Positions 11,285 to 30,660 of a stretch of 32,000 nucleotides of DNA are shown here, one piece after another. The number at the start of each line of letters is the position of its first letter. Positions within the stretch are counted from its first letter, which is position 1. This DNA is from Candidatus Electrothrix sp. GW3-4 (GTDB lineage: Bacteria > Desulfobacterota > Desulfobulbia > Desulfobulbales > Desulfobulbaceae): assembly GCF_037902255.1 (NCBI RefSeq), contig NZ_CP147990.1:2790001-2822000 (forward strand). The letters are read 5' to 3'. A program made the translations under genes and the position numbers. Under the pieces are notes generated by a model. That model had not been told where the DNA came from. It worked only from the letters and a program-made list of their open reading frames with translations, and did not search any database.

Positions 11285-11596
11285 TTAGCGAAGAGTCATG
11301 GTCTCTACCAGCTGCGACTTCATTTGAACACGAATTTTCTCTATCATGGCAGGCTGGATGCTATCCTTCATGAAGTTCTGAGGAACACGCACTGCCATCA
11401 TTTTGGCACGCATCTGATTTTTCAGCAGCCGAGCAGAGTAGTTTTGTATGATCATCTCCTGCTGCATCTCAGCTATTAACTTATCAACTGTTATCGCAGC
11501 GGTGTCAGTTTCCATCTGTACTGCGGAAGCAGAATCAGTCATAACAAAACTGCCAGCCGCCAGTCCGAGTGCTAATATCATTATTATCTTTCTCAT
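11285..11596 (-). CDS. Small secreted Met-rich protein, unknown function
   Basis: 103 aa with a signal peptide (MRKIIMILALGLAAGSFVMTDSASA) and roughly 15 Met residues. The C-terminal half is similar to that of the next gene. Confidence 0.5.
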   Translation of the reverse strand: MRKIIMILALGLAAGSFVMTDSASAVQMETDTAAITVDKLIAEMQQEMIIQNYSARLLKNQMRAKMMAVRVPQNFMKDSIQPAMIEKIRVQMKSQLVETMTLR

Positions 11597-11700
11597 TTTC
11601 CCCCCTCATTTTTATGTAAAAAACCGGAATACTCCGCGTATCGACAATCGCCCGGAGTGTTTCATCAAAAAATTGCCGGTTTAATCATTTGCCTGAGTAC

Positions 11701-12192
11701 TTACTGTTTGAAACGTGCCCGAACCCTTTCAATAATCCCACCACTAAACATCGGTATCGTACTCACTTGAATTTTTCTTCTTACTTCCTGTGACATATGA
11801 GGTTGAATAATCGGCATACACAATTCCTGATTATGAGAAATAATATCATTGGTAATATTACCCATCACCTGGTTCCTCATTTTACCCATCAAATGGATCG
11901 GGATATCGCGTTGCCCAAGGTACTTCCGTAATAATGGCTTCTCCTGGATAGCCATTGCTACTGCCAACTGATTTCGTTCCTCAGGTGTTAAGGCATCAAG
12001 CCCTTTTTGTTCTTTCATAAGCCGTATATGCCGCTCTGCCATCTTATCCATAATTGTATCACGATCCTGCTGGGGCAAGGCCTGAAGGGCCTGTTCAAAC
12101 ATCTGCGTTGCGGAATGAGCCGTAACAGGTACCGTCATCAGGAAAGTACCAACAACCACTATAGCAAGGACAGAACCAAGTCTTCGTTTCAT
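11701..12192 (-). CDS. Secreted Met-rich periplasmic protein, possibly Spy/CpxP-like
   Basis: 163 aa with a signal peptide (MKRRLGSVLAIVVVGTFLMTVPVTAHS). The LTPEERNQL motif is reminiscent of the LTxxQ motifs of CpxP/Spy. The family call is weak. Confidence 0.5.
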   Translation of the reverse strand: MKRRLGSVLAIVVVGTFLMTVPVTAHSATQMFEQALQALPQQDRDTIMDKMAERHIRLMKEQKGLDALTPEERNQLAVAMAIQEKPLLRKYLGQRDIPIHLMGKMRNQVMGNITNDIISHNQELCMPIIQPHMSQEVRRKIQVSTIPMFSGGIIERVRARFKQ

Positions 12193-12518: not shown

Positions 12519-12929
12519 TCAGGCGCAAATTACCCTATTCTTTCTGGAGCCGCTTTCCCGTTCTTTACAAGGTAGTTTGCTGTGAAAAGTAGCGCAAGAC
12601 TTACGCCGCACTGTACTAGTCCGGGTGCCGCCCGCCATTTCGTACTCGCTGCTGTCCTTGCCGAACTTGCCCGCGACCCCGGCTAACATCCGCGATGACC
12701 ACTCATTGACTTTCTTCTCCGCCGCCTTCAGCTCATTGGCCTTATTATCCAGCAAAGCAAGCAGGGTGTTGTATTCATCAAGGATAGTTTCGGCAGCTGC
12801 GATCTCGGCTTCATAGGCGGGCAGGGTGAGCGGGCCGCCTAATGCCAGGTTCGGGTCTATCGCCTTGATGCCAGCGGCACGCTGTAGCGCCTTGACAATG
12901 ATTTTGGATGCTCTGCGTTTAAAGGCCAT
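12519..12929 (-). CDS. Hypothetical coiled-coil-like protein
   Basis: ATG 12929 is preceded by GGAGGAAAGATC. The protein starts MAFKRRASKIIVKALQRAAG and contains SEYEMAGGTR. The track ORF extends to 13082 without RBS support. No family recognised. Confidence 0.45.
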   Translation of the reverse strand: MAFKRRASKIIVKALQRAAGIKAIDPNLALGGPLTLPAYEAEIAAAETILDEYNTLLALLDNKANELKAAEKKVNEWSSRMLAGVAGKFGKDSSEYEMAGGTRTSTVRRKSCATFHSKLPCKERESGSRKNRVICA

Positions 12930-13557
12930 GATCTTTCCTCCGTGAAAAAAAAGTTTTTTCCAGCAGTCAAGGAGCGAACAGACATGCGCAGTCCGTCCAC
13001 TGCCCTGTAAAAACAGATTGTACACCTCTGAAGATTGGTTGCAGGAACCTGCAACTTCCCTGTGGACATCCGAATAGTCCAACGTGGCATGCCGAGGGAA
13101 GATCTAAACGTATGTAACTCTTCTCTGAGAGCTACGAGGAATGGTTTCTGACCTACATACGTCGTCTCGGAGAGCTGCGAGGAGACTGTCAGACCAGCAA
13201 ATCATCCAGAGCAGAGCTTCTCACGAGCTTTCGGAGGTACACATGCTGCCTCGTACCAGTCCGAGGTGCGTTCTGCAGGAACAAAAACCGCAGAGGGGCG
13301 CTGCGTTCCTGGGTGCAAAGGTTGGAAAGGCGATTATCTTCCTTCCTTTTCTTTAACGCAGTTGCACAATATTGCAAGAGAAAAATAGAGAGGACGTTCC
13401 ATTTAAGCTACTGGCGGACTTGAAGGAACCTTTTTACTGCATGGACAAGGGTTGTTGTGTTATACTTTAATCCATCAGAAAAAAACTTATTTATATTTTC
13501 GGTGAAAAAGTCTATGGAGCCGATTATCACCACTCTTGCGGCAGCCGGTGCTTGTTC

Positions 13558-13673
13558 ACCCCCTTCGGGGTAGGGATATTGCAGGACGTTAACAATATGC
13601 CCAGATCCCTGAGCAGGATAAAACCCGAGCCCTGAAAGGGTTCAGGGCTAATAGCCCAAGGTCATCACCTTGG
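13558..13673 (+). repeat. Diverged copy (A) of the multi-hairpin repeat family, 22 nt upstream of DGR target 1
   Basis: Shares three hairpin modules with copies B and C. These are cccc(c)ttcgggg, ccctgaaaggg (extended here to agccctgaa/ttcagggct) and cccaaggtcatcaccttgg. The last stem carries a compensatory g>a / c>t pair relative to cccagggtcaccaccctgg. Confidence 0.6.
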
Positions 13674-13694: not shown

Positions 13695-14426
13695 ATGCAT
13701 AACGAAGAACCTACCATCCAACTCCCCTCCGGCCCGGTTATTGAACTGAGGTACGTCCAGGGCGGAAAATTTATGATGGGGGATGACAAAAGTGAATATG
13801 GTGACGAGAAGCCTGCCCATCCGGTCAGACTGTCAGATTTTTACCTCGGCAAGTTCCCGGTCACTCAGGAGGTCTGGCAGGCAGTAATGAATAACAATCC
13901 CTCCAGCTTTAAAGGTGAACACCGTCCGGTGGAAACTGTCTCCTGGGAAGATGCACAGGAGTTTCTTGCCCGGCTCAATCAGCAGACCGGCAGGGTCTTT
14001 CGTCTGCCTACAGAAGCGGAATGGGAATACGCGGCCCAAGGCGGCAGGCACAGTGAGGGGTATATCTATGCAGGCAGCGATCGATTGAAACAGGTGGGCT
14101 GGTATGAGAAAAACAGCGGCGATGAGACCCATGAGGTCGGTCTGCTGTATGACAATGAACTGGGCCTGTACGACATGAGCGGCAATGTCTGGGAGTGGTG
14201 TCAGGACTGGTTTTCCAAGGAATACTACGTAGCATGCCATCAACAGGGAACCGTGGACAATCCCCAGGGGCCTGACACCGGGTCGTACCGCGTTCTGCGC
14301 GGCGGCGGCTGGATCTACTACCCGGTGGGCTGCCGTTCCATCTATCGGAGCAGCAACCCGCCGGTGTATCGGCACCACCACATCGGCTTCCGCCTTGCCC
14401 TCCCCTCCCAGTCAGCTGGAAGCTAA
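13695..14426 (+). CDS. DGR target protein 1, FGE-sulfatase (SUMF1) / C-type-lectin-fold domain protein
   Basis: 243 aa. RLPTEAEWEYAAQGG, NVWEWCQDW and the C-terminal RVLRGGGW....GFRLA are hallmarks of the FGE/CLec fold. No signal peptide. The last 44 codons are VR1. Confidence 0.92.
   Translation: MHNEEPTIQLPSGPVIELRYVQGGKFMMGDDKSEYGDEKPAHPVRLSDFYLGKFPVTQEVWQAVMNNNPSSFKGEHRPVETVSWEDAQEFLARLNQQTGRVFRLPTEAEWEYAAQGGRHSEGYIYAGSDRLKQVGWYEKNSGDETHEVGLLYDNELGLYDMSGNVWEWCQDWFSKEYYVACHQQGTVDNPQGPDTGSYRVLRGGGWIYYPVGCRSIYRSSNPPVYRHHHIGFRLALPSQSAGS
14280..14411 (+). repeat. DGR variable repeat VR1
   Basis: 132 nt aligned without gaps to TR (offset 1762). There are 13 mismatches, all at TR adenines: 16048, 16069, 16078, 16081, 16090, 16091, 16105, 16112, 16115, 16127, 16129, 16135 and 16141. 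Confidence 0.95.
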
Positions 14427-14531
14427 TCCTGGTTTCCCGTGAGCAAAAGAGCAAGCGAGTGGAGCAACGGCTGCAAAGAGGCGAGGGACGAGCCGACAGC
14501 AACCGCAGCGTAGCGAGGCGGCAAGGGGGGT

Positions 14532-14548
14532 TCGGGGCGCAGCCCCGA
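14532..14548 (+). other. GC-rich hairpin in the conserved post-VR1 segment
   Basis: tcggggc-gca-gccccga: 7-bp stem, 3-nt loop. An identical copy lies after VR2. Confidence 0.5.
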
Positions 14549-14573
14549 TGAATTTTTTATCGGATAAGCGACA

Positions 14574-15026
14574 ATGCAAATTAAACTTTTCACCATTCCA
14601 ATCCACGGAGGAGAGCAGCTCTGTGAAGCAATGAATCGATTTCTGCGTTCCAAAAAAATCCTCCAGACAGAAAGCCGTCTTGTGAGTACTGTCGAGGGAA
14701 GTTTCTGGTGCTTTTGCATCAGATATCTTGCCGAAAATCAGCAGACAGACAAGCGAAGAAAGATTGATTACCGTGCAGTATTGGACAGCGGCAGTTTTCA
14801 ACGTTTTGCCGCAATGCGGGAAATCCGAAAAAAACTGGCGCAGCAGGAGGGCATCCCGGCATACGCTGTCTTCACCGATGCCGAGCTGGCTGAACTGGCC
14901 CGGATTGAGCACCTTACCTTGGCGGATCTGCGCGGGGTGCATGGCATTGGCGCTGCCAAGGTGGAAAAATACGGAGCGCATTTCACCGCGCAGGAGAACA
15001 ATGAAACGGGCAAGCCGACTGCTTGA
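14574..15026 (+). CDS. DGR accessory protein with C-terminal HRDC domain
   Basis: 150 aa. FAAMREIRKKLAQQEGIPAYAVFTDAELAELARIEHLTLADLRGVHGIGAAKVEKYG matches the HRDC consensus of RecQ/RNase D. The ORF overlaps the RT start by 26 nt. Confidence 0.85.
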   Translation: MQIKLFTIPIHGGEQLCEAMNRFLRSKKILQTESRLVSTVEGSFWCFCIRYLAENQQTDKRRKIDYRAVLDSGSFQRFAAMREIRKKLAQQEGIPAYAVFTDAELAELARIEHLTLADLRGVHGIGAAKVEKYGAHFTAQENNETGKPTA

Positions 15027-16038
15027 GCGGATTGCCGAGCCTGACAATCTGCGCCTGGCCTTCTGGAAGGCCCGCAAGGGCAAAAGTCTGTCCACCCAGA
15101 TGCAGGCCTATCAAAACAGGTTGGAGCACAACCTGCTTCTCCTGCGGGGACAGATTTTGTCAGGAAAAATTTCAATCGGCGCGTACTCCTGCTTTGCAAT
15201 CCATGACCCCAAGAAACGACGGATCTGCGCGGCTCCGTTCACCGAGCAAGTGCTTCATCATGCCCTGATGAATGTCTGCCATTATCATTTTGAGACAAAG
15301 CAGATCTATGATAGCTATGCCAGCCGTCCCGGCAAAGGGACCCATGCCGCAGTCAGGCGGACGCAGATGTTCTCCGGCGCCTCTTCCTGGTTTCTCAAGC
15401 TGGATGTCCGCAAGTTTTTTGCCAGCATTCATCACGGCTGCCTGAAAGAGCAACTGAGGAGGATGTTCAAGGATCATCATTTGCTTGGTCTGCTGGATAC
15501 TATTATTGACAGCTATGAAGACAGCCCCGGGCGCGGCCTGCCGATCGGCAATCTGTCCAGTCAGTATTTTGCCAATCATTATCTGGCAGGACTTGATCAT
15601 TTTATCAAAGAGCAGCTCCGCTGTCGGGCATACATCCGCTACATGGACGATATGGTCCTGTGGCATAACGACAAGAAACGGCTGAAGGAATGGCATCATC
15701 AGATCAGGGAATTCGTGCGCAACAGGCTGCAATGCGAACTGAAGCCGATCCTGCTCAACCGGACGGAACACGGGGTCCCCTTTCTCGGCTACAGAATCTT
15801 TCCCTTTCATATTCGGCTGCTGCAACGAAGCAAGGCTCGATTTATCCGAAAAATGCGGTATATTGAGCGAAAGTACCAATCCGGCGCATGGAGCGAGCAG
15901 AACTGCCAACGGCACGCCCTGCCGCTTATCGCCTTTACCGCTCTCGCCAATGCCGAGGTCTTCAGAAGAGATGTGATGCAGCGATTGCAAAACGACAGGG
16001 CATCGGACGTGGAAAAAGGAGACGGTTCATTGTCATAA
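15001..16038 (+). CDS. DGR reverse transcriptase
   Basis: ATG 15001 is preceded by AGGAGA. Sequence features are MKRASRLLERIAEPDNLRLAFWKARKGK, LPIGNLSSQYFANHYL (the DGR-specific [I/L/V]GxxxSQ motif) and YIRYMDDMVLW (the catalytic YxDD box). The track start at 14728 is an upstream alternative-codon extension. Confidence 0.93.
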   Translation: MKRASRLLERIAEPDNLRLAFWKARKGKSLSTQMQAYQNRLEHNLLLLRGQILSGKISIGAYSCFAIHDPKKRRICAAPFTEQVLHHALMNVCHYHFETKQIYDSYASRPGKGTHAAVRRTQMFSGASSWFLKLDVRKFFASIHHGCLKEQLRRMFKDHHLLGLLDTIIDSYEDSPGRGLPIGNLSSQYFANHYLAGLDHFIKEQLRCRAYIRYMDDMVLWHNDKKRLKEWHHQIREFVRNRLQCELKPILLNRTEHGVPFLGYRIFPFHIRLLQRSKARFIRKMRYIERKYQSGAWSEQNCQRHALPLIAFTALANAEVFRRDVMQRLQNDRASDVEKGDGSLS

Positions 16039-16041
16039 AAG

Positions 16042-16173
16042 GGGTCGAACCGCGTTCTGCGCGGCGGCAGCTGGATCAACAACCCGGTGAACTGCCGTTC
16101 CATCAATCGGAACAACAACCCGCCGGAGAATCGGAACCACAACATCGGCTTCCGCCTTGCCCTCCCCTCCCAG
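16042..16173 (+). repeat. DGR template repeat (TR)
   Basis: Starts 4 nt after the RT stop. It contains 29 adenines, mostly in AAC/AAT codons when read in the VR frame (GSNRVLRGGSWINNPVNCRSINRNNNPPENRNHNIGFRLALPSQ). The 3' part (16145-16171) is adenine-free and identical in TR, VR1 and VR2. Confidence 0.95.
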
Positions 16174-16338: not shown

Positions 16339-17070
16339 ATGGACAACGACAATCTTATCATCCAACTCCCCTCCGGCCCGGTTATTGAACTGAGGTACGT
16401 CCAGGGCGGAAAATTTATGATGGGGGATGACAACGCGAAAGACGATAACGAGAAACCGGCTCATCCGGTCAGACTGTCAGATTTTTACCTCGGCAAGTTC
16501 CCGGTCACTCAGGAGGTCTGGCAGGCAGTAATGAATAACAATCCCTCCAGCTTTAAAGGTGAACACCGTCCGGTGGAAACTGTCTCCTGGGAAGATGCAC
16601 AGGAGTTTCTTGCCCGGCTCAATCAGCAGACCGGCAGGGTCTTTCGTCTGCCTACAGAAGCGGAATGGGAATACGCGGCCCAAGGCGGCAGGCACAGTGA
16701 GGGGTATATCTATGCAGGCAGCGATCGATTGAAACAGGTGGGCTGGTATGAGAAAAACAGCGGCGATGAGACCCATGAGGTCGGTCTGCTGTATGACAAT
16801 GAACTGGGCCTGTACGACATGAGCGGCAATGTCTGGGAGTGGTGTCAGGACTGGTTTTCCAAGGAATACTACGTAGCATGCCATCAACAGGGAACCGTGG
16901 ACAATCCCCAGGGGCCTGACACCGGGTCGCACCGCGTTCTGCGCGGCGGCAGCTGGCTCAGCTACCCGGTGGACTGCCGTTCCATCGATCGGCTCATCAG
17001 CCCGCCGGAGTATCGGGACCACGACCTCGGCTTCCGCCTTGCCCTCCCCTCCCAGTCAGCTGGAAGCTAA
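16339..17070 (+). CDS. DGR target protein 2, FGE-sulfatase / C-type-lectin-fold domain protein (paralog of target 1)
   Basis: 243 aa from ATG 16339 (MDNDNLIIQLPSGPV). The protein is identical to target 1 between HPVRLSDFY and GPDTGS. The C-terminus is VR2. The track start at 16264 is an unsupported extension. Confidence 0.92.
   Translation: MDNDNLIIQLPSGPVIELRYVQGGKFMMGDDNAKDDNEKPAHPVRLSDFYLGKFPVTQEVWQAVMNNNPSSFKGEHRPVETVSWEDAQEFLARLNQQTGRVFRLPTEAEWEYAAQGGRHSEGYIYAGSDRLKQVGWYEKNSGDETHEVGLLYDNELGLYDMSGNVWEWCQDWFSKEYYVACHQQGTVDNPQGPDTGSHRVLRGGSWLSYPVDCRSIDRLISPPEYRDHDLGFRLALPSQSAGS
16924..17055 (+). repeat. DGR variable repeat VR2
   Basis: 132 nt aligned without gaps to TR (offset 882). There are 14 mismatches, all at TR adenines: 16048, 16075, 16079, 16081, 16090, 16105, 16111, 16112, 16115, 16118, 16129, 16135, 16141 and 16144. 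Confidence 0.95.
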
Positions 17071-17172
17071 TCCTGGTTTCCCGTGAGCAAAAGAGCAAGC
17101 GAGTGGAGCAACGGCTGCAAAGAGGCGAGGGACGAGCCGACAGCAACCGCAGCGTAGCGAGGCGGCAGGGGT

Positions 17173-17189
17173 TCGGGGCGCAGCCCCGA
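17173..17189 (+). other. GC-rich hairpin in the conserved post-VR2 segment
   Basis: The same tcggggc-gca-gccccga hairpin as at 14532-14548. Confidence 0.5.
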
Positions 17190-17258
17190 TGAATTTTTCT
17201 TCTCACGAATGGGTGGTATGAATCAGCTCAGAATCGTCACCCTGGTTATCCAACCGAT

Positions 17259-17381
17259 GCTTGGGATGGTATCCCAAGCTGAGATGCAGAACCCCTGCGG
17301 GGTAACGGGCAGGTGCTACATCCGAACCAAGCAAAGGAACCCTGAAAGGGTTCCTGATATCAGCCCAGGGTCACCACCCTG
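17259..17381 (+). repeat. Multi-hairpin repeat copy B, 36 nt upstream of the Y1 transposase gene
   Basis: Hairpins in order: gcttgggat-ggt-atcccaagc, cccc-tgc-gggg, gaaccct-gaa-agggttc and cccaggg-tcacca-ccctg. By eye about 85-90 percent identical to copy C, in the same orientation. Confidence 0.75.
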
Positions 17382-17416
17382 CCCTGAGCCTATACCGATA
17401 AAGGGAATCAAACGCC

Positions 17417-17872
17417 ATGCCGCAATCACTGAGCAGGATCTTTCTCCATCTCATCTTTTCGACCAGGAAACGAATCCCCTTCCTTGTTGATGCCGAACTG
17501 CGCGACCATACCCATGCCTATCTCGCTGAGGTCTGCCGTCAGTTGGGGGTACTGCCTCTCCGTATCAACGGCACGGAAGATCATGTCCATATCCTCTGCG
17601 CCATGTCCCGAACCCGGACTGTCGCCGATCTGGTCAAGGAGCTGAAGCGAACCTCGTCCAAATGGCTTAAGCAGCAGGGGGAAGAATTGCTCTGTTTCTA
17701 TTGGCAGGGCGGCTATGGCGCGTTTTCCGTCAGCCCGTCCCATGTCGATGAGGTGGAACGGTACATTGCCTGCCAGCCGGAGCACCATAAGACCCTATCG
17801 TTCCAGGATGAATTCCGACGGATTCTGAAAAAATACGGAGTGCAATACGATGAACAATATGTCTGGGACTGA
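17417..17872 (+). CDS. IS200-like / REP-associated tyrosine transposase (RAYT, Y1 HUH family)
   Basis: 151 aa. It starts MPQSLSRIFLHLIFSTRKR, carries the HUH motif EDHVHIL and the catalytic-Tyr region YWQGGYGAFSV. Size and motifs fit IS200 TnpA/RAYT. Confidence 0.85.
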   Translation: MPQSLSRIFLHLIFSTRKRIPFLVDAELRDHTHAYLAEVCRQLGVLPLRINGTEDHVHILCAMSRTRTVADLVKELKRTSSKWLKQQGEELLCFYWQGGYGAFSVSPSHVDEVERYIACQPEHHKTLSFQDEFRRILKKYGVQYDEQYVWD

Positions 17873-17922
17873 TTGTTCATCGTATTGCCCAAATAATGTC
17901 CGGGGTGTCATCATCCTGGGTG

Positions 17923-18049
17923 GCTTGGGATGGTATCCCAAGCTGAGATACAGAACCCCCGCGGGGTAAAAAGGACAGGTGTCACATCCAAACCAAGCAG
18001 AGGAACCCTGAAAGGGTTCTGGAGATCAGCCCAGGGTCACCACCCTGGG
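17923..18049 (+). repeat. Multi-hairpin repeat copy C, 34 nt upstream of the Roco gene
   Basis: Same four hairpin modules as copy B. The track ORF 17930..20269 and ORF 17209..17490 both translate through the repeats (MVSQAEIQNP / MVSQAEMQNP). That explains their similar but spurious N-termini. Confidence 0.75.
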
Positions 18050-18082: not shown

Positions 18083-20269
18083 ATGAACATCATCAAACCG
18101 ATAATCATCCAACAGATCGAAGAGCAGCTCCAGCTTACCCTGCAGCCTGCACCATCCCTGCCTACGCCCCTGCGCGGCCTGATGACCTATAAAGAAAATC
18201 AGCCCAAATACCTGCTGGACGAACAGGACCGGCTCATCGGCCTCAATCTGGCCGCAACCGAGCTGGATGATGCCCGCTGGCAGCAGATTGTCATCCTGCT
18301 GGATAAACATGGCGTTCAGCTCCAGGCCCTGAACCTGTGCGAGAATCAGTTAAAGGACTTTGTTCCGCCACCGGGCATTGCGGTCATGACCGATCTTGAC
18401 CTGGATGACAACCCGCTAGAATATCCATCACCGGAAACTGTTCAGCAAGGAAAAGCTGCTGTGCTTCGTTTCCTGCAAGTTGCCGCCGCCCAGGGTACAC
18501 GCGAGGCCTTTGAAGTCAAAATGCTCATTGTCGGCGAAGGCGAGACCGGCAAGACCACGCTCTGGAACCTACTCCAGACCCCTGACCATCCAGTGCCGGA
18601 TGAGGACCAAAAAAGAACGGTCGGTATCCAGATCAAAGAAGGCTGGGAGTTCCCCCATCTCGACCATCCAGACACCCCGTTCTTTATCAATCTCTGGGAT
18701 TTCGGCGGCCAGGAGATCCAATACATGACCCACCAGTTCTTCCTCACCCGCCGCTCCTTCTATGTGCTGCTTGCCGACGGGAGAAAGGAGGCTGCCAATT
18801 TTTCCTATTGGCTGGACATCATCAGCCTGCTGGGCCGCGACCCGGATCAGGACGGCAGATTACCTTTGCTGGTGGTTGTGAATGAAAAGGGCAATACAAA
18901 CCCAACCCTTCCCTACGATTCCAACACGGTGAAGGAACAGTATCCCGGCCTGGAGATCATCAGAAAGCATATTGACTTTGCCGAGAAAGGCGGACGGCTT
19001 GATGATCTGCGGGATAAAATCAAAAAGATCCTCTGCCGCAATATCGCCCACCTGCCGATCACCATTCCCAAGCTCTGGGACGAGGTACGGAATGAACTCA
19101 AGGTACTGCGGCAGGAGGTCAACCATATTGACCACCAGAAGTTCTTGGATATCTGCAACCGGCACGGCATCAGCGACCGCCAGCAGCAGGACGACCTGAG
19201 CCAATTCTTCCATGACCTCGGGCTGATCCTCCATTTTCACGAAGGAATATTGGAAGATTTTATTGTTCTCAATCCAAGCTGGGCGGTGAACGCGATCTAT
19301 ACCATCTTGGAAAGCGAGGATGCCACATATAATCAGGGCCGTTTCAACCAAGAGGTCCTTAAATCTATTTGGAACAAAAAGGGCTTCTCCATTGCCGAAC
19401 AGGGCAAGCTGCTCAACCTGATGCTGAAGGACGGGCTGGAGGTCTGCTTCAAAGCCAAAGAGCAGGGCGATGAAATCTTCATTGCGCCCCAGCTCTTGCC
19501 CGAGGAGGCCCCTGAAGAGGCGCAATGGGAGGATAGCCCGGAGACCCTGCGCTACATCTATCATTACCCCTTTATGCCCAAGGGATTGATCGGGCGGCTG
19601 ATTGTTCGCCTGCATGAGGACATCGAAGACTGCTGCGACACGGATCAATGTCATCTGGACTGCCGAAAGATGGTCTGGAAAAATGGTATGTATCTGCGTA
19701 AAGCCCACTGCCGGGCACGGGTGCGTTATATCAATGACCGCAAGCAGGGACGGGAGATTATCCAGCTTGAGGTACAGGGGCCGGAGGTTGAAGATCGTCG
19801 ATATGTTTTGCGAGATATCCGGGAAGAATTAGAAGAAATACACAAGAAGCCCTTTTCCTCACTGCGTTTCTTTGAGAAGATCCCCTGCTGCTGCGATGAG
19901 TGCAAAAAATCCGTCATGCCCCATGAATACGACAAGGACGACCTGCAACGGATGAAGAAAAAGGATGTCGAGGAAATGCGCTGTATGCAGAGCGGCATGA
20001 ACGTCCCGATCCGCCAGCTTTTGGATGGGGTGTTTCAGGAAAGGGAACTTTGTGCGGAGCCGAAGCTACAGGAAAGCAGCACACCGGTGACAGTAAACGT
20101 TTATGCCAACCAGCATAAAGAATCATCGGGTGAATCAGCTGATGCCAGCAAGAAGCCTTGGTGGAAACGCTGGTGGCTTGGTATCGTCGGAGTTCTTGGG
20201 GCTATCGGGGTAGTTCTTGCCAACTTGGTGAAGATTATAGAGGCGATAGAAAAATTCCTTGGCCCATAA
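18083..20269 (+). CDS. Roco-type GTPase: LRR - Roc (Ras-like GTPase) - COR, with a C-terminal Cys cluster and TM anchor
   Basis: 728 aa from ATG 18083 (MNIIKPIIIQQ). LRR-like units include LQALNLCENQL and LDLDDNPLEYP. The P-loop is IVGEGETGKTTL and the switch II motif is WDFGGQE. The long following region is consistent with a COR domain. It ends with PCCCDECKK and KKPWWKRWWLGIVGVLGAIGVVLANLV. Confidence 0.8.
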   Translation: MNIIKPIIIQQIEEQLQLTLQPAPSLPTPLRGLMTYKENQPKYLLDEQDRLIGLNLAATELDDARWQQIVILLDKHGVQLQALNLCENQLKDFVPPPGIAVMTDLDLDDNPLEYPSPETVQQGKAAVLRFLQVAAAQGTREAFEVKMLIVGEGETGKTTLWNLLQTPDHPVPDEDQKRTVGIQIKEGWEFPHLDHPDTPFFINLWDFGGQEIQYMTHQFFLTRRSFYVLLADGRKEAANFSYWLDIISLLGRDPDQDGRLPLLVVVNEKGNTNPTLPYDSNTVKEQYPGLEIIRKHIDFAEKGGRLDDLRDKIKKILCRNIAHLPITIPKLWDEVRNELKVLRQEVNHIDHQKFLDICNRHGISDRQQQDDLSQFFHDLGLILHFHEGILEDFIVLNPSWAVNAIYTILESEDATYNQGRFNQEVLKSIWNKKGFSIAEQGKLLNLMLKDGLEVCFKAKEQGDEIFIAPQLLPEEAPEEAQWEDSPETLRYIYHYPFMPKGLIGRLIVRLHEDIEDCCDTDQCHLDCRKMVWKNGMYLRKAHCRARVRYINDRKQGREIIQLEVQGPEVEDRRYVLRDIREELEEIHKKPFSSLRFFEKIPCCCDECKKSVMPHEYDKDDLQRMKKKDVEEMRCMQSGMNVPIRQLLDGVFQERELCAEPKLQESSTPVTVNVYANQHKESSGESADASKKPWWKRWWLGIVGVLGAIGVVLANLVKIIEAIEKFLGP

Positions 20270-20750: not shown

Positions 20751-20916
20751 TCCAGCGGCGGATTACGCAGCCGGAATAACCAGCGCATAGCCTTGCAGAA
20801 CTCTGCTCTTTTCCTTTCTCCTTTCCTTCTTGTTTTTTCGTACAAAACACTTTACCCTTATAGTCATAGGTAACATCTGTTCCCAATTTCCCAAACATAC
20901 TGCTCTGGAGGATACC

Positions 20917-21534
20917 GTGGAGTTAGCACAACAGGAATGCTACACATGGCAGGATTACAGGAAAATGCCTGACAATGAACGTTACGAGCTGATATCCGGC
21001 ACCTTCTATGCCATGAGCCCGGCACCATCACGCTTTCATCAGGAAATCAGCATGGAGCTTGCCCGGCAACTCAGCAACTATCTTCTTGATCACTCCTGCT
21101 CGGTCTATCCTGCCCCCTTTGATGTCCGCCTTCCGACTGCCCATGAATCTTCCGACACAAGCACTACTGTGTTGCAACCAGATATCTCCATTATCTGTGA
21201 TGCGAAAAAACTGGATCAACACGGCTGTGTCGGTGCCCCGGACTTTATTGCTGAAATCAGCTCTCCTTCCACAGCTGCCCATGATAATATCACCAAAACA
21301 GCCCTCTATGAGCAGTTTGGAGTTCGAGAATATTGGATCATTCACCCGTTGGACAGGTTAGTCACGGTCCGCCTTCTCGGTCAGGACAACCTTTTTCTTC
21401 CGCCTCATATCCATGAGGGCAAAGGCATGCTCGCGTTGACCATACTCCCTGAACTTGAGATCGATCTGGACCTCCTGTTCCGAAGCATTACGCTCAACGA
21501 ACAGACTCTATTTTCCATAAAAAAAAGCGACTGA
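20917..21534 (+). CDS. Uma2 family (DUF820) endonuclease
   Basis: GTG 20917 is preceded by GGAGGA. Sequence features are YTWQDYRKMPDNERYELISGTFYAMSPAP, PDISIICD and APDFIAEISSPST....K...Y...GVREYWIIHP, the characteristic Uma2 pattern. Confidence 0.8.
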   Translation: MELAQQECYTWQDYRKMPDNERYELISGTFYAMSPAPSRFHQEISMELARQLSNYLLDHSCSVYPAPFDVRLPTAHESSDTSTTVLQPDISIICDAKKLDQHGCVGAPDFIAEISSPSTAAHDNITKTALYEQFGVREYWIIHPLDRLVTVRLLGQDNLFLPPHIHEGKGMLALTILPELEIDLDLLFRSITLNEQTLFSIKKSD

Positions 21535-21539
21535 CCTGC

Positions 21540-21827
21540 TTATCTCCGGCGACCAGCAGCTTTTTTATACACCATACTGTTCTCCCGTTTGCCCACAGCA
21601 ATAACCACAACAACCAACTCAGAGTCAATCACTTCGTAAACCAAGCGGTAACCGACAGACCGCAACTTGATTTTATACCGATTTTCACTGCCCGAAAGCT
21701 TGGCTGCCGGAACAAAGGGATTCTGGAAACGTTCTGCCAGCTTTTTCTTGAACTGCTTTTTTACGGAACCATCCAATGCCTTCCATTCCTTGAAGGCTTC
21801 AGACAGAAACTCCAGTTCATAGCTCAT
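21540..21827 (-). CDS. relE: Type II toxin RelE/StbE
   Basis: 95 aa. MSYELEFLSEAFKEWKALDGSVKKQFKKKL...YKIKLRSVGYRLVYEVIDSELVVVVIAVGKRE is closely collinear with E. coli RelE. Confidence 0.9.
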   Translation of the reverse strand: MSYELEFLSEAFKEWKALDGSVKKQFKKKLAERFQNPFVPAAKLSGSENRYKIKLRSVGYRLVYEVIDSELVVVVIAVGKRENSMVYKKAAGRRR

Positions 21828-26921: not shown

Positions 26922-28271
26922 TTACGCTGCCGGTTTCCACTCTTTGAGGAAGGCTGGCAGATGGCCAGCCTCACGAGGACCGATGGTAATAGTCCACTCA
27001 GGCAGCTCCTCTTCCAGCTCACCCTTAATGGTGGCCAGATACCCCGGAATGATCAGCTCCCGATGCTTGACCTTATCCAGGATGCCAGACTTATTGACAA
27101 ACATGGCGATCAAATCAGCACCGAATTTACCCGCAGCCCAGGCAGTCAATACGGACAGACCTTCAGTATCCTTGATCAGCAACCAGCTGGGCACCTTGGA
27201 CCCCTCAATCTCACCGGACACGATAAAGTAGGTGAGCGAGAAATTACAGGTGATCAAGACCGGTGAATTCTCATCCGGCCCGGTAATCGGGTAAATATCC
27301 TCAGCCACAACCATAGGCCGCTGCGGATCAGTAAAGATGTTGAGCTGCTCAAGCAGAAGCGGGAACAGAATATCGCCCTGGATATCGGAGAAGACGGTAA
27401 TGCCTGCGTACTTGGCCAGCAGGACAGAGCCGATCATGGCCTCCATCATCAGGTCGTCACACATCTCGCAGGGGAAGGCGATGGTCGGGAAGCCCAGGGG
27501 CTTGAATTTATCCTTGACCGCCGAACGACGGGCAACAACATTATCCTCAAAGGCACCACGCAGGGTCCGGGCCCCGGTATCAATGACCATGTCTTTGACT
27601 CCAGCGGCGAGCAGCTTATCTGCTGTCTCCACCAGATCATCAAGATTCTTGCCCTTGACACCGATGACACAACCGGTCTCTTTGGCAAGCTCAGCAAAGG
27701 CATCCACATTCTCAGCGCTGGCACCGTAGAGCAGCGGCTTATTATCACCGCAGGCCTCGGCTCCGGCCTTGAGATTCTCTGGATTCTCGCTCATCAGGAT
27801 AATGGCCTGCTTGGGAGCACCTTCCATCACCTTCTTGGCCATATCTGCCAGCGATGCGCCACCATTATCCTTGATAGCGACCAGGTTATTGCGCATCATG
27901 ACGCCGACACGCTCATACTCAAACGCGTTGGCCCGTTTAATCTTGCCATCAACAGAGGCAGCATCCTCATCTGTCGCAATCAGGACCGCCAAGCCAGTCT
28001 GGTTCTCAAACCGCTTCTCATGGCGAAACTGACAGGTTTCACCACCTGCGGTGAATACTGCATCTCCGCTACCGATCTTGATGGTACGAATCGGCGGGGC
28101 CGAGGCCTCACCAATGGTGGCCTTTGCCTCATCACTGACATAAGGACATGTTTCGATCTCAGCCTGCCCGGCTGCCACTTTCATGGCAAAGGCGAGACAG
28201 GTAGGTATGCTACACTCGCCGCAATTCTTCTTGGGCAGCATCTTGAGTATCTGTATACCGGTTAACGCCAT
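26922..28271 (-). CDS. acsC: Corrinoid iron-sulfur protein large subunit (AcsC / CdhE-type)
   Basis: 449 aa. The N-terminal 4Fe-4S motif is KKNCGECSIPTCLAFAMKVA....CPY, followed by a TIM-barrel-like body. ATG 28271 is preceded by GGGAGG. Confidence 0.88.
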   Translation of the reverse strand: MALTGIQILKMLPKKNCGECSIPTCLAFAMKVAAGQAEIETCPYVSDEAKATIGEASAPPIRTIKIGSGDAVFTAGGETCQFRHEKRFENQTGLAVLIATDEDAASVDGKIKRANAFEYERVGVMMRNNLVAIKDNGGASLADMAKKVMEGAPKQAIILMSENPENLKAGAEACGDNKPLLYGASAENVDAFAELAKETGCVIGVKGKNLDDLVETADKLLAAGVKDMVIDTGARTLRGAFEDNVVARRSAVKDKFKPLGFPTIAFPCEMCDDLMMEAMIGSVLLAKYAGITVFSDIQGDILFPLLLEQLNIFTDPQRPMVVAEDIYPITGPDENSPVLITCNFSLTYFIVSGEIEGSKVPSWLLIKDTEGLSVLTAWAAGKFGADLIAMFVNKSGILDKVKHRELIIPGYLATIKGELEEELPEWTITIGPREAGHLPAFLKEWKPAA

Positions 28272-28405
28272 TATCTATCCTCCCATGCAGCAGCCGTTTT
28301 TCTTCATCCGCCCGGCGGCTGTTCGTTTGTTCTCAGAGTACCTGTTATATCTTGAGCGCATCCGCCAGACCTGTCTGGAGGATGCGATGCTTTCTTCTTT
28401 TTCGT

Positions 28406-28460
28406 GAATCAACATCGAATCAGCGTTGATTCAGCGTGCAATCAGCGCCGACTCAGCCCA
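28406..28460. repeat. Five tandem 11-nt units spanning the acsB stop and the acsB-acsC spacer
   Basis: GAATCAACATC / GAATCAGCGTT / GATTCAGCGTG / CAATCAGCGCC / GACTCAGCCCA in exact 11-nt phase. Confidence 0.7.
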
Positions 28461-30660
28461 TTGCTGTTTCCATTTCCAGGGCAGGATGACCTTTTTCCTT
28501 GAGAAAGGTGAGGATCTCTTCCTCTGTGGTGCCCTGCTCTTCGGTGGCGATCATGTCATAAAGCTCGGGCATTCCTTCATACTCACAAAGGGCCTTGAGC
28601 TTCTCGCTGATCTCATCCTTGAGAATTTTCGGCATCCAAACCATGCGCTTAACGCCACCTTCTGCCTTAAACAGCTTCTTACTGGTCATGTAATGCTTAG
28701 ACACCCCCATGAAACCAGGGGTCTGCATACCGCCACCCGCCATACCGGCCAAGGTGGTAAACTTCATACCAGAAGGGGTCATGCCCATGTAATCACGGTT
28801 GACCACCATGATGCCATTGCATTGCGGTAACATGGCTGCGATGGCCTCAAAGCAACCACAGGCAGTCATAGGGTTATTCATCAGAGAATAGCAGCTGACC
28901 TCTGGCACCGCCCCACGGGAAGCCTGGGAAACAAACTCATTGATGCCGGTAAAGTAGCCGTTATCAGGGTCTGTACACTCCCCCTTATCAATGGGCTGAT
29001 TCGGCCCTGTTGGGTTGATCTGATAGGAGGCCTTACCATCCAGCCAGTTATAGGCACCACACATTCCGATGCGCTCCGGTGTAATAACGCAGACATGGCT
29101 GGGCGCAAAGGACTGACACAGGGTACAGGAGTAGAAAACATCTTCCGTCTCATCGGTCATGGAGCCAAGGCGCAGGTCACGCTCTTCATAGACCTGCTTG
29201 GCAATATTCATGACTTCTTCAACTTTTTCCTGCTCAGTGTAGATCTTGACCTGGACCTTATCGAGAATGGCCCCAAATTCCTGATGCAGCTTACCGTGCA
29301 GCACCACACCGAGGTGTTTGAAAGAAAATCCTTTTTCCACGGCAGCCTTGCCAATCCGGATCCACATGATGTTGCGCTGCCCGATATGCATAATGCCCTG
29401 AATATAGTTCATCAGATGATGAAACTGACGCTCCAGGATGGGCTCAAAATCCGACTGCATCTCACGACCAGCCACCTCGACCAGGATACCGATGGGCAGG
29501 TTCTGCCCCTCTTCGATATCAGAGATATCCGGTCCTTCCAGGGTGACGAGACCGTCTTCGACCTCATCCATTTCCTTGGAGATCAGGACCTCCACACCGG
29601 TGGTTCGCCCACCACCACATTCCATGAACAGGTCGTCCTTGCGGATACGCTCACCCTCAAAGGCCGGGCCAAAGGACATAGGGATATCAATCTTGCTGAC
29701 ATTGACCTTCAGGCCGCGCACCTCAATGGCCTTCTGGACAATCTCGTCATGGGGTATATCAGAAACCACATGCTCATAGGTACAAACACCTGTGGGCAGG
29801 ATCTCAGGAATCGCATAGTCAGAGATAGTCGGGAAGCCCCAGTTGATAGCACCGGCTGCGTTAGCATACCATTCGTCACTGACCTGACCAAAAGGCATAA
29901 CAAAGGCATAGGTCCTGTCCTTATTATAGAGCAGGTTGCCCTTATAATCGCCCGGTTTAATACCACCAAAGGCCATAGCCACACGACAGGCAAAACCGAT
30001 GGAGAAGACCACCGAGGTATAACGCTTACCAAAAGGCACCAGACGGGTGTTCCAGCCTACCTGTACCCCGTTCTTCACCAGCAGATCCGGCATATAATTG
30101 CCATCAGAATCCGTGTGCATAAAGATATAGAGATTCTTCTCCTGCAATTCCAAGGCTATCTTGGAGGCGACCTCAGGGTCAGAAGGAGAACCGACGATGG
30201 CAGCAAAGCCTGGAGCCGTGCCATCAACGAACTCAACCCCTCGTTTTCGGAAGATAACGTCATCTGCTGCACCCAGCCAGATATTATCGGCCGTTGGGTC
30301 TTCGGTCTTGGTGTAGTAATCCGGTGAATTCAGGTAGTCGATGGCCTCGTACATTTCCTCGGCAAAATAGGTTGCCATACCGGCATCCAAGGCAGGCCCT
30401 AAGTACGGCAGCCACATATCCTCGGTAACAACAGATGGTAAGAGCTTCCGACATTCCTGAAAAATATCTTTCATATCGCCGAGTCGTTCCACCTTGGCTC
30501 CAAGCATGGAATAAATAATCGGCAGGTAGTAGGCAGTATTGGGAAAGGAAACTTCCTGTTCAGGGCCGTACTTCTTTACAGCCTCTTCATAGGACGCTTC
30601 GGCCATATCCACGATTTTTTGGGCACCGCGAATCGCTGCGGAGCAGATAATCTTTGACAT
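28453..30660 (-). CDS. acsB: CO-methylating acetyl-CoA synthase (ACS, AcsB / CdhC-type)
   Basis: 735 aa. It starts MSKIICSAAIRGAQKIVDMAE and contains FYSCTLCQSFAPSHVCVITPERIGMCGA (A-cluster Cys region) and MTACGCFE. ATG 30660 is preceded by AAGGGAG. Confidence 0.92.
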   Translation of the reverse strand: MSKIICSAAIRGAQKIVDMAEASYEEAVKKYGPEQEVSFPNTAYYLPIIYSMLGAKVERLGDMKDIFQECRKLLPSVVTEDMWLPYLGPALDAGMATYFAEEMYEAIDYLNSPDYYTKTEDPTADNIWLGAADDVIFRKRGVEFVDGTAPGFAAIVGSPSDPEVASKIALELQEKNLYIFMHTDSDGNYMPDLLVKNGVQVGWNTRLVPFGKRYTSVVFSIGFACRVAMAFGGIKPGDYKGNLLYNKDRTYAFVMPFGQVSDEWYANAAGAINWGFPTISDYAIPEILPTGVCTYEHVVSDIPHDEIVQKAIEVRGLKVNVSKIDIPMSFGPAFEGERIRKDDLFMECGGGRTTGVEVLISKEMDEVEDGLVTLEGPDISDIEEGQNLPIGILVEVAGREMQSDFEPILERQFHHLMNYIQGIMHIGQRNIMWIRIGKAAVEKGFSFKHLGVVLHGKLHQEFGAILDKVQVKIYTEQEKVEEVMNIAKQVYEERDLRLGSMTDETEDVFYSCTLCQSFAPSHVCVITPERIGMCGAYNWLDGKASYQINPTGPNQPIDKGECTDPDNGYFTGINEFVSQASRGAVPEVSCYSLMNNPMTACGCFEAIAAMLPQCNGIMVVNRDYMGMTPSGMKFTTLAGMAGGGMQTPGFMGVSKHYMTSKKLFKAEGGVKRMVWMPKILKDEISEKLKALCEYEGMPELYDMIATEEQGTTEEEILTFLKEKGHPALEMETAMG

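Follow-up and report, generated by a model that had tools for sequence, protein, structure and literature searches.

We lean toward reading a Roco (LRR-Roc-COR) GTPase gene of a Candidatus Electrothrix genome, that of a cable bacterium, and the standalone FGE/CLec-fold genes near it as one conserved functional module, for which the adjacent DGR would be an optional diversifier. Sequence comparisons across genomes make it very probable that the Roco and FGE proteins are functional partners; whether their module is an immune or abortive-type system we regard as evenly balanced. The window, which is the whole 32,000-nucleotide stretch analyzed, carries the following features, each given with its strand and the evidence behind it.

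13597..13672, plus strand: relic of a RAYT 5' end (13597-13619) and a copy of a two-REP-hairpin element (13627-13672), 5' of target 1 (repeat comparison)
13695..14426, plus strand: DGR target 1, standalone FGE/CLec-fold protein, 243 aa, with VR1 at 14280-14411 (Pfam FGE-sulfatase 1.6e-49)
14527..14557, plus strand: GC-rich hairpin and T-run, 3' of target 1 (repeat/hairpin analysis)
14574..15026, plus strand: HRDC-domain DGR accessory gene (Pfam HRDC 2.7e-16)
15001..16038, plus strand: DGR reverse transcriptase (RT), 345 aa (RVT_1 4.9e-15)
16042..16173, plus strand: template repeat (TR), 29 adenines, 18 variable codons (repeat and TR-VR alignment)
16339..17070, plus strand: DGR target 2, standalone FGE/CLec-fold protein, with VR2 at 16924-17055 (Pfam)
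17168..17198, plus strand: second, identical copy of the 31-nt hairpin, 3' of target 2 (repeat/hairpin analysis)
17259..18047, plus strand: RAYT (Y1_Tnp 17417-17872) with flanking REP-like direct repeats of about 125 nt (Y1_Tnp 5.7e-22)
18083..20269, plus strand: Roco (LRR-Roc-COR) GTPase gene, 728 aa, predicted to be tail-anchored (Pfam, AlphaFold2, Foldseek, homolog N-termini)
18083..18502, plus strand: N-terminal cap (aa 1-45) and short LRR (about 3 units, aa 46-140) of the Roco (pLDDT 89-98)
18518..18832, plus strand: Roc GTPase domain, aa 146-250 by Pfam, with G1 GEGETGKT, G3 DFGGQ and G4 NEKGN (Pfam, motif alignment)
19067..19498, plus strand: COR-A domain, aa 329-472 (Pfam 6.9e-37)
19541..20029, plus strand: COR-B domain, aa 487-649, with conserved Cys cluster (Pfam 1.1e-31)
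20042..20161, plus strand: disordered linker, aa 654-693 (pLDDT <50)
20162..20257, plus strand: C-terminal helix, aa 694-725, KKPWWKRWW juxtamembrane motif followed by predicted TM core 698-716 (hydropathy, AlphaFold2)

A longer ORF of 779 aa, ending like the gene at 20269 but opening at 17930, was rejected as the gene start. Its extra 51 codons lie inside the REP-like repeat at 17923-18047 and the N-termini of homologs are level with the ATG at 18083, so the 728-aa version, which a preliminary description made from the sequence alone had also adopted, is correct. Pfam recognizes Roc (2.8e-15), COR-A (6.9e-37) and COR-B (1.1e-31). COR lies directly C-terminal of Roc and Foldseek matches 6HLU and 3DPU, which places the protein among the Rocos and makes a COR domain of what had been described as a COR-like region. 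The Roc motifs GEGETGKT (aa 151-158) and DFGGQE (206-211), already picked out in that description, prove near-invariant among 111 Roco homologs. The canonical G4 motif NKxD is absent; the Roco reads NEKGN at this site (aa 267-271), as do about 80 of the 111 homologs, and this aligns to NKID of Methanosarcina barkeri Roco2. Because NEKGN lacks the canonical Asp, guanine specificity of the Roc domain is not assured. The Cys-rich stretch noted earlier falls within Pfam COR-B, and 90% or more of the homologs retain each of its four cysteines C602, C604, C607 and C634 (PCCCDEC...C, nt 19886-19984).

The LRR units of the preliminary description are less firm: about three putative units can be made out by eye as LxxLxLxxN-type repeats (LIGLNLAATEL, LQALNLCENQL, MTDLDLDDNPL), and some homologs score Pfam LRR_4 or LRR_8, but Pfam gives no LRR match in this protein at E<=0.1. 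The cap and short LRR are specific to the clade and well conserved within it. Residues 1-110 are matched by only 98 representative clusters among 1.84 billion, and alignments with distant Rocos begin only at about aa 78-110. This region is a candidate docking site for the FGE partner.

AlphaFold2 models the protein (pLDDT 88.5, pTM 0.83) as an ordered body (1-653), a disordered linker (654-693) and a terminal helix (694-725). The best structural match to the model is the Chlorobium tepidum LRR-Roc-COR structure 6HLU (Foldseek E=7e-33), aligned over 688 of 728 columns, with little of the N-terminal region left unaligned. By sequence, the Roc-COR region matches C. tepidum Roco (6HLU, 3DPU, 8R4B) and M. 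barkeri Roco2 (4WNR) with E of 1e-46 to 1e-49. CtRoco has a long LRR, its Roc-COR aligning from chain residue ~416-439, and no TM tail, whereas the present clade combines a short LRR with a specific N-terminal cap, the four-Cys cluster in COR-B and a non-canonical G4. Human LRRK2, LRRK1 and DAPK1 are homologous to the window protein in the Roc-COR switch (LRRK2 E ~1e-19), but the window Roco has no kinase, ankyrin, armadillo or WD40 region, and its output would be the TM tail.

That tail has the single C-terminal TM helix preceded by KKPWWKRWW of the first description. The TM core, rich in small residues, is the sole hydrophobic segment of the protein (Kyte-Doolittle 2.39) and coincides with the AlphaFold2 helix. 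With one predicted TM in the last ~35 residues and no predicted signal peptide, the protein is a probable tail-anchored protein.

The two standalone FGE-fold targets that had been placed beside the NTPase gene are borne out by Pfam and by TR-VR comparison. The reverse transcriptase adjoins both the template repeat and an accessory gene, which is of HRDC type rather than Avd, and each VR lies at the C-terminus of a CLec/FGE target and is followed by a GC hairpin. This 31-nt hairpin element, by its sequence, may be a DGR target-site hairpin and/or a terminator. All mismatches between template and variable repeats fall on template adenines, 13/13 for VR1 and 14/14 for VR2, and judged by these 27/27 mismatches the DGR beside the Roco is real, with signs of activity. 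Its template could in theory specify about 1e17 variants. At a Saprospiraceae locus with a TIR-tailed Roco, 20/20 mismatches likewise fall on TR adenines. The closest solved relative of both targets, and the top PDB match of target 1 (E=4.9e-35), is the Treponema denticola DGR variable protein TvpA (2Y3C), which shares their CLec fold of FGE type and likewise has its VR at the C-terminus. TvpA is a surface lipoprotein; the window targets, unlike it, lack a signal peptide, and a cytosolic location is predicted for them.

Linkage between Roco and FGE genes was surveyed across genomes. Same-strand standalone FGE genes occur within about 2 kb at 16 of 17 loci whose Roco is at least 40% identical to that of the window, the single exception being at a contig end, compared with 5 of 79 loci with more distant Rocos, a set drawn from the matches listed in a profile search of genome contigs, most of which were distant Rocos (Fisher p=5e-13, with loci counted as independent and kinship ignored). 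Enrichment of Roco homologs near FGE-fold genes, which the preliminary description had named as the test of a functional link, is thus found. The linkage recurs among Desulfobulbales, Bacteroidota and Nitrosomonas, across at least ten genomic contexts and at least five gene orders, including those below.

Roco-FGE-HRDC-RT-FGE: L083, L084, L088
FGE-HRDC-RT-Roco-FGE: L087
FGE-HRDC-RT-Roco(TIR): L091
FGE-FGE-Roco: L089, Nitrosomonas
FGE-FGE-Roco(EAD11)-FGE: L092
FGE-FGE-Roco-FGE-FGE: L093
Roco then 5 tandem FGE genes: L001, Bacteroidia
FGE-RAYT-Roco, resembling the window: L086
RAYT-FGE-FGE-Roco: L095

Spacing can be operon-like: stop and start codons overlap by 4 nt in L084, and the genes of L092 are 4 nt apart. 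The FGE protein is encoded by a separate gene in the window and at 16/16 linked loci, and a search for PF03781 in the best 120 Roco homologs found no such domain, hence no FGE-NTPase fusion among them. In a phylogenetic tree, one clade of 39 FGE proteins contains 36 of the 40 Roco-linked FGE genes, and the three members of that clade scored as unlinked lie on contigs of 1.1-2 kb. FGE and Roco proteins also co-diverge (Mantel r=0.61, a value reached by 1 of 5000 permutations). The pairing of a diversified sensor with an NTPase, first put forward as a hypothesis, gains support from the linkage, from its clade-to-clade character and from this co-divergence.

FGE proteins of this general kind can function without a Roco, since 77 of 80 standalone-FGE loci (44-56% identity) found by a metagenome search with target 1 have no Roco nearby. 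At first sight this result told against the link, but the tree puts the linked FGE proteins in a clade of their own. Neighbors of the sampled unlinked FGE arrays are mixed: AAA-ATPase_like with PDDEXK_9, Schlafen AlbA_2, AAA_14 with DUF4143, and Pkinase. A search of viral contigs returned no copy or relative.

As for the DGR, the earlier suggestion of a link between the Roco and the DGR with its targets stands for the FGE protein, which is the conserved partner, and in part only for the DGR, whose HRDC and RT genes are present at about half of the linked loci. The position of the Roco beside or inside the RT cassette at several loci might suggest that its task is to control the DGR, for example by letting mutagenic retrohoming proceed only upon a signal, rather than to act with the targets. 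We give this scarcely any credence. Five loci (L001, L081, L089, L092, L093) keep Roco and FGE genes without RT and HRDC, so that it is the FGE protein, rather than the retroelement or retrohoming, to which the Roco is tied; conversely, L127 and L138 have an HRDC-type DGR and standalone FGE targets but no Roco.

Between target 2 and the Roco gene lies the RAYT insertion of the preliminary description, an IS200-like Y1 transposase gene (Y1_Tnp 5.7e-22) set between palindromic repeats (17259-17381 and 17923-18047) of two hairpins each. With it stands a terminator-like hairpin at 17173-17189, so that co-transcription of target 2 and Roco is not required here. The repeat said to be common to the upstream regions of target 1 and the Roco does exist, as a two-hairpin element of about 45 nt (copies at 13627-13672 and 18003-18047), whose hairpin 2 shows a compensatory change. 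A third copy (17337-17381), however, precedes the RAYT. The copy upstream of the Roco is the RAYT's 3' flanking repeat, and that upstream of target 1 adjoins a relic of the RAYT start. As a RAYT-associated REP-type element, the repeat is uninformative on co-regulation, and we rejected it as a sign of it. No exact match to it turned up in 173 other loci.

RAYT copies recur in Electrothrix loci, the genomic context of the window locus differs from that of its orthologs, and TA and Uma2 genes lie nearby. These facts would suit an origin of the adjacency in a variable or defense island, through RAYT/REP activity or horizontal transfer, with no direct functional link from the Roco to the FGE/DGR genes. 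This explanation is highly improbable, given that the linkage extends across phyla and at least ten contexts, the genes invariably sharing one strand and in places overlapping or nearly abutting, that clade-to-clade specificity runs in both directions, and that the two proteins co-diverge. Moreover, the loci outside Electrothrix (L001, L087, L089, L091-L093) have no RAYT match.

A functional module of Roco and FGE proteins has close counterparts in the literature. Kaur, Iyer, Burroughs and Aravind (eLife 2021, PMC8195603) cataloged LRR-AP-GTPase-COR conflict proteins as well as fused NTPase-FGS proteins, and their source data include an operon 'FGS->?->RVT->LRR+AP-GTPase+COR' from a Saprospiraceae MAG. 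Like the window Roco, these LRR-AP-GTPase-COR proteins have an LRR, Roc and COR core with a swappable C-terminal effector (TIR, caspase, EADs or TM), and like the present module they are frequent in filamentous or multicellular bacteria. In the literature, too, their counter-invader function is predicted. In that catalog FGS appears as an effector-position domain; no Roco clade obligately paired with a standalone FGE clade is singled out, and neither an HRDC-type DGR, nor a short conserved LRR with a specific cap, nor cable bacteria with the module are mentioned. The NTPase-FGS fusions of that study and the STAND/CLec "antigen sensors" that Dore et al. (PNAS 2024, PMC10907252) describe from Thiohalocapsa PB-PSB1 and other multicellular bacteria resemble the present system in joining a DGR-diversified FGE/CLec domain, an NTPase switch and conflict effectors in multicellular bacteria. 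There, the NTPase (STAND, KAP or AP-GTPase) bears the CLec domain as a C-terminal fusion, and an accessory protein of the four-helix Avd type is described. Here the FGE protein (~240 aa) has a gene of its own, often present 2-5 times, a Roco serves as the NTPase and the accessory is HRDC. The terms Roc, GTPase, HRDC and Electrothrix are absent from PMC10907252. STAND/NLR-like anti-phage sensors (Avs, bNACHT) follow the same logic of sensor, NTPase switch and variable death effector; the module differs from them in its Ras-like GTPase with COR, in a sensor that is separately encoded and hypermutated, and in having no PADLOC match. The split Roco/FGE module is a new form of the cataloged AP-GTPase conflict proteins and fused NTPase-FGS proteins.

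The C-terminal helix of the window Roco occupies the position that effectors hold in its relatives. On a core 40-70% identical, that position carries a TM, a TM with a conserved tail (2-TM-like), TIR, EAD11 or other tails, and relatives sharing the Roco N-terminus carry EAD11 with CHAT, TIR or caspase. A conserved LRR-GTPase-COR core with varied C-terminal effectors (TM, TIR, EAD11, caspase, CHAT) in close relatives is as seen in AP-GTPase conflict systems. A single TM helix alone is no recognized toxin, and it may be just an anchor.

Alternatively, the pair could serve signaling of a non-immune kind, in which DGR-diversified FGE receptors would tune recognition of self, kin or environmental ligands within the filament, a membrane-tethered Roco would relay this by switching reversibly as a GTPase, and the TM helix would provide localization only. 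The anchor-like helix on its flexible tether suits such a role, as does a PADLOC v2 search in which 0 families were matched by the Roco or the FGE protein, and for cyanobacterial DGR targets a part in tuning regulatory pathways has been proposed (PMC7517822). We hold it to be rather unlikely, because TIR, EAD11, caspase and CHAT, typical death or immune effectors, stand at the orthologous position in close relatives, and because genes for Uma2 (a PDC-S03 candidate) and ParE are also near the locus.

The roles might also be reversed, the Roco LRR being the sensor and the hypervariable FGE proteins the output, as antibody-like binders that neutralize or mark an invader after Roco activation. Kaur et al. 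(PMC8195603, PMC7159879) count FGS among the domains found at the effector position in AP-GTPase and vWA systems, which fits this arrangement. It is nonetheless improbable, since the LRR is short (about three units), conserved and not fast-evolving, the Roco already has a variable effector-position tail of its own, and recognition would most naturally fall to the hypervariable partner.

In the conserved module that we favor, the cytosolic FGE-fold proteins, two copies here, would be variable ligand receptors, about 18 codons of each being rewritten by the HRDC-type DGR. A ligand-bound FGE protein would dock on the conserved cap and short LRR at the Roco N-terminus. The Roc-COR tandem would then act as a nucleotide-dependent switch, probably though not surely using GTP, whose altered oligomeric state would gather or release the C-terminal module. 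Here that module would be the flexible 40-aa tether ending in a small-residue-rich tail-anchor TM helix, which might damage the membrane; in close relatives it would be TIR, an EAD11 adaptor, caspase/CHAT or a 2-TM tail. Most likely, the affected cell of the filament would as a result stop growing or die, possibly in response to an invader, and a multicellular bacterium would thereby have an NLR-like system of conflict or immunity.

Structural work on LRRK2, the protein of Parkinson's disease, takes its main models from bacterial Rocos, yet we know of no established biological role or partner for any of them, CtRoco included. The present locus and its relatives supply a concrete candidate partner, a dedicated clade of standalone FGE-fold proteins, and the swappable TM, TIR, caspase or EAD tails supply a readable Roco output. 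Full-text literature searches returned no paper mentioning a DGR in cable bacteria and nothing relevant on Roco proteins together with anti-phage activity. The idea of a DGR-hypermutated "antigen sensor" extends here from fused STAND-CLec proteins to a split, two-gene receptor and switch, to GTPase switches and to cable bacteria. The split design lets 2-5 receptor paralogs per locus feed one executioner, an architecture unlike known NLR-like sensors. The NEKGN motif at G4 could additionally mean that the Roco switch does not use GTP.

We tentatively suggest that cable and other filamentous bacteria may possess an antibody-like intracellular surveillance, in which free cytosolic lectin-fold receptors, somatically diversified by a DGR, would on meeting a ligand trigger a Roco executioner with a TM, TIR, caspase or EAD tail. 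If true, this would give the first physiological role and the first natural partner of a bacterial Roco, and it would suggest that the ancestral role of the Roc-COR of LRRK2 and DAPK1 was the control of immune cell death.

A 728-residue LRR-Roc-COR GTPase, here called Roco, is encoded at 18083-20269 (+). Its reading frame ends at 20269, and a mechanical start at 17930 gives 779 residues; that start was rejected, as its first 51 codons fall within a REP-like repeat (17923-18047). Because, in addition, the N-termini of 110 homologs are level with the ATG at 18083, the 728-residue reading of the preliminary description is correct. Profile searches with Pfam bear out its Roc GTPase (2.8e-15) and COR-like region (COR-A, 6.9e-37; COR-B, 1.1e-31). 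The LRR is the weakest element of that description: about three units can be counted, but Pfam search gave no LRR in this protein. By sequence, the nearest solved protein is M. barkeri Roco2 (4WNR, 2.8e-49); C. tepidum Roco (3DPU/6HLU) matches at about 1e-46 and LRRK2 at about 1e-19. An AlphaFold2 model built with 111 homologs as input is confident (pLDDT 88.5, pTM 0.83), and among solved structures it most resembles 6HLU, an LRR-Roc-COR crystal structure (E=7e-33, 688 aligned columns). The model has an ordered body (1-653), a disordered linker (654-693), and a terminal helix (694-725). Within this helix lies the sole hydrophobic segment, residues 698-716 (Kyte-Doolittle 2.39), just after KKPWWKRWW, in agreement with the single C-terminal TM helix first described; because there is no other such segment, Roco is predicted to be tail-anchored, with the bulk of the protein in the cytoplasm.

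The Cys-rich stretch noticed earlier is real and lies inside Pfam COR-B. Its pattern is C-x-C-x2-C ... C (residues 602-634, window 19886-19984), and C602, C604, C607, and C634 are each kept in at least 90% of homologs. The cluster may bind a structural metal; the C. tepidum Roco sequence match ends before it, at residue 601. The N-terminal 110 residues, a cap plus short LRR, are conserved rather than fast-evolving, and matches to them are limited to 98 of 1.84 billion representative clusters; among the matches listed, more distant Rocos align only from about residues 78-110 onward. The G4 motif is NEKGN instead of NKxD (residues 267-271, window 18881-18895), as in about 80 of 111 homologs, with a one-residue insertion and then Asn where the guanine-contacting Asp stands. 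A D-to-N change at this position moves the specificity of other GTPases towards xanthine nucleotides, so this Roco clade may be something other than a plain GTPase.

The DGR (diversity-generating retroelement) beside Roco is real, and its FGE-fold targets are standalone, as first described. Its parts are:

13695-14426, target 1, FGE-sulfatase fold (1e-49)
14574-15026, HRDC accessory gene
15001-16038, reverse transcriptase (RT)
16042-16173, template repeat (TR)
16339-17070, target 2, FGE-sulfatase fold (1e-49)

All mismatches between TR and the variable repeats (VR) fall at template adenines, 13/13 for VR1 of target 1 and 14/14 for VR2 of target 2, and the 18 variable codons allow about 1e17 theoretical variants. 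Identical copies of a 31-nt hairpin element lie downstream of each target. The closest solved relative of both targets is TvpA, a DGR variable protein, and neither has a signal peptide by sequence.

Close Roco homologs were examined on their contigs for neighboring genes. The gene orders by locus (L numbers) are:

L083, L084, L088: Roco-FGE-HRDC-RT-FGE, one common context (NAD synthase ... LpxK); in L084 the Roco stop and the FGE start share 4 nt
L081 (Ca. Electrothrix laxa): Roco-RAYT-FGE-RAYT-FGE
L086: FGE-RAYT-Roco, different context
L087: FGE-HRDC-RT-Roco-FGE, third context
L095: RAYT-FGE-FGE-Roco
L089 (Nitrosomonas): FGE-FGE-Roco
L091 (Saprospiraceae): FGE-HRDC-RT-TR-Roco(TIR), TR-VR mismatches at adenines 20/20
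L092 (EAD11-tailed Roco): FGE-FGE-Roco-FGE, 4-nt gap
L093 (fifth tail type): FGE-FGE-Roco-FGE-FGE, 49-aa RT relic
L001 (Bacteroidia MAG): Roco, then five tandem FGE genes

The linkage extends to homologs in other phyla and to those whose C-terminal tails differ. A same-strand FGE gene occurs within about 2 kb in 16 of 17 loci whose Roco is at least 40% identical; in the lone exception (L082), Roco lies 411 nt from the contig end and has a RAYT fragment upstream. Among the matches listed, 5 of 79 more distant Rocos have an FGE gene nearby, and the enrichment among close homologs, whose absence the preliminary description had named as refuting the pairing, is strong (Fisher p=5e-13, uncorrected for relatedness).

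In the opposite direction, 80 metagenome loci were retrieved with target 1 (44-66% identity). Most hold standalone FGE genes, singly or in arrays with as many as nine copies; because only 3 of the 80 hold a Roco, FGE proteins as a whole are not Roco-dependent. In a neighbor-joining tree of the FGE constant part (residues 12-190), 36 of 40 Roco-linked FGE genes fall in a single clade of 39, whose three "unlinked" members come from contigs 1.1-2 kb long, one of them with a Roco C-terminal fragment. Across 17 loci, pairwise Roco (Roc-COR) identity correlates with that of the FGE partners (Mantel r=0.61, a value attained in 1 of 5000 permutations). The linkage therefore joins one clade to another and holds in both directions, and comparative genomics supports the proposed pairing of diversified sensor and NTPase. 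Roco is linked with the FGE protein, not the RT, since the pair persists in RT-less loci, and some HRDC-type DGRs whose FGE targets are standalone lack a Roco (L127, L138). The 49-aa remnant in L093 (8557-8700), between two FGE genes, aligns to window RT residues 283-331 and is the only trace of RT there, which suggests that RT-less loci derive from DGR-bearing ones.

Another FGE clade forms Roco-less tandem arrays of 4-9 copies (L097, L106, L109, L111-L113, L118, L122). Neighbors of Roco-less FGE genes, sampled in arrays L106, L109, L111, and L113 and non-array loci L101, L116, L131, L159, and L169, include AAA-ATPase_like+PDDEXK_9 (twice), Schlafen AlbA_2+HATPase_c_4, AAA_14+DUF4143, and a Ser/Thr kinase, which could represent further receptor/NTPase pairings.

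Between target 2 and Roco lies the insertion noted at the outset:

17417-17872, RAYT (IS200-like Y1 transposase), 125-nt direct repeats on either side

The upstream repeat said to be common to target 1 and Roco is present as the distal 45 nt of the 125-nt repeat. It comprises two hairpins, with a compensatory change in hairpin 2, and stands 23-36 nt upstream of the target 1, RAYT, and Roco start codons. Ahead of the target-1 copy lies a 23-nt relic of a RAYT start. We read the element as a REP/RAYT remnant, not a common regulatory signal, and the argument from the repeat for a functional link fails. RAYT-related sites in the window are 17259-18047 and 13597-13672 (the relic fused to REP hairpins). 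Several Electrothrix-type loci carry RAYTs within or next to the module (L081, 12272-12727 and 14164-14619; L082, 143-298; L086, 9456-9911; L095, 7419-7871), and the two in L081 occupy the positions of HRDC and RT in relatives. RAYTs may be attracted by the DGR hairpins or may simply be common in these genomes.

The surroundings include:

11285-12192 (-) and 12519-13082 (-), opposite strand, immediately upstream of the DGR, two small proteins (103 and 163 aa) with N-terminal signal-like hydrophobic segments and a 187-aa ORF, none of the three products with a Pfam match
20830-21534 (+), directly downstream of Roco, Uma2-family putative endonuclease, matching PADLOC candidate system PDC-S03 (1e-50)
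21540-21827 (-), downstream of Roco, ParE-family toxin
26922-30660 (-), genes for the gamma and alpha/beta subunits of CODH/ACS (Wood-Ljungdahl); like housekeeping genes of the window, they fall in 90%-identity clusters that carry the name Candidatus Electrothrix, which identifies the host

Uma2 and ParE give Roco a defense-island-like context. In L087 (1-2916), about 7 kb from the module, nSTAND1-WD40 and SIR2-EAD11 genes are parts of other conflict systems, the latter possibly an EAD11-recruited effector.

This kind of system is already known as a computational prediction. Kaur et al. 2021 (PMC8195603) report LRR-AP-GTPase-COR proteins, whose C-terminal domains are of at least 24 types, and NTPase-FGS fusions linked to DGRs, AP-GTPase being one possible NTPase; their source data hold one Saprospiraceae protein in the arrangement FGS->?->RVT->LRR+AP-GTPase+COR, and entries with TM, TIR, and EAD11 tails. 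In Kaur et al. 2020 (PMC7159879), FGS figures as an effector of vWA ternary systems. The DGR-diversified sensors of multicellular bacteria described by Dore et al. 2024 (PMC10907252) have CLec fused to STAND, whereas FGE and Roco are split here; that paper uses none of the terms Roc, GTPase, HRDC, or Electrothrix. No PADLOC model matches Roco or the FGE protein, and a literature search combining cable bacteria with DGRs found no paper. What appears to be new is the split module in which a Roco clade and an FGE clade are reciprocally paired, together with its HRDC-type DGR, the cap and short conserved LRR, and the occurrence in cable bacteria.

Tails on the Roco core are interchangeable. About 18 closest relatives have one TM helix and a KPWW-RWW motif; another type has a TM region and then a conserved segment of about 45 residues (LGALQLKND...KKIPPLNWF); TIR, EAD11, and further tails also follow the core; EAD11+CHAT, TIR, or caspase occur in more distant relatives with the common N-terminus. 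We infer the steps of FGE-Roco binding, activation, and killing as follows. Hypervariable cytosolic FGE proteins would be the receptors, the conserved cap/LRR of Roco would sense their state, Roc-COR would be a nucleotide-dependent switch, and the tail would be the output. In the window Roco, switching would cluster the small-residue-rich tail-anchor helices and so perturb the membrane. In paralogous clades that position is occupied by TIR (NADase), caspase/CHAT (protease), or EAD11 (adaptor) modules. The main rival is reversible signaling, with the TM helix a mere anchor. Under the killing model, in a host that is a cable bacterium growing as a multicellular filament, the system would likely serve to stop an invader through the sacrifice of one cell in the clonal filament.
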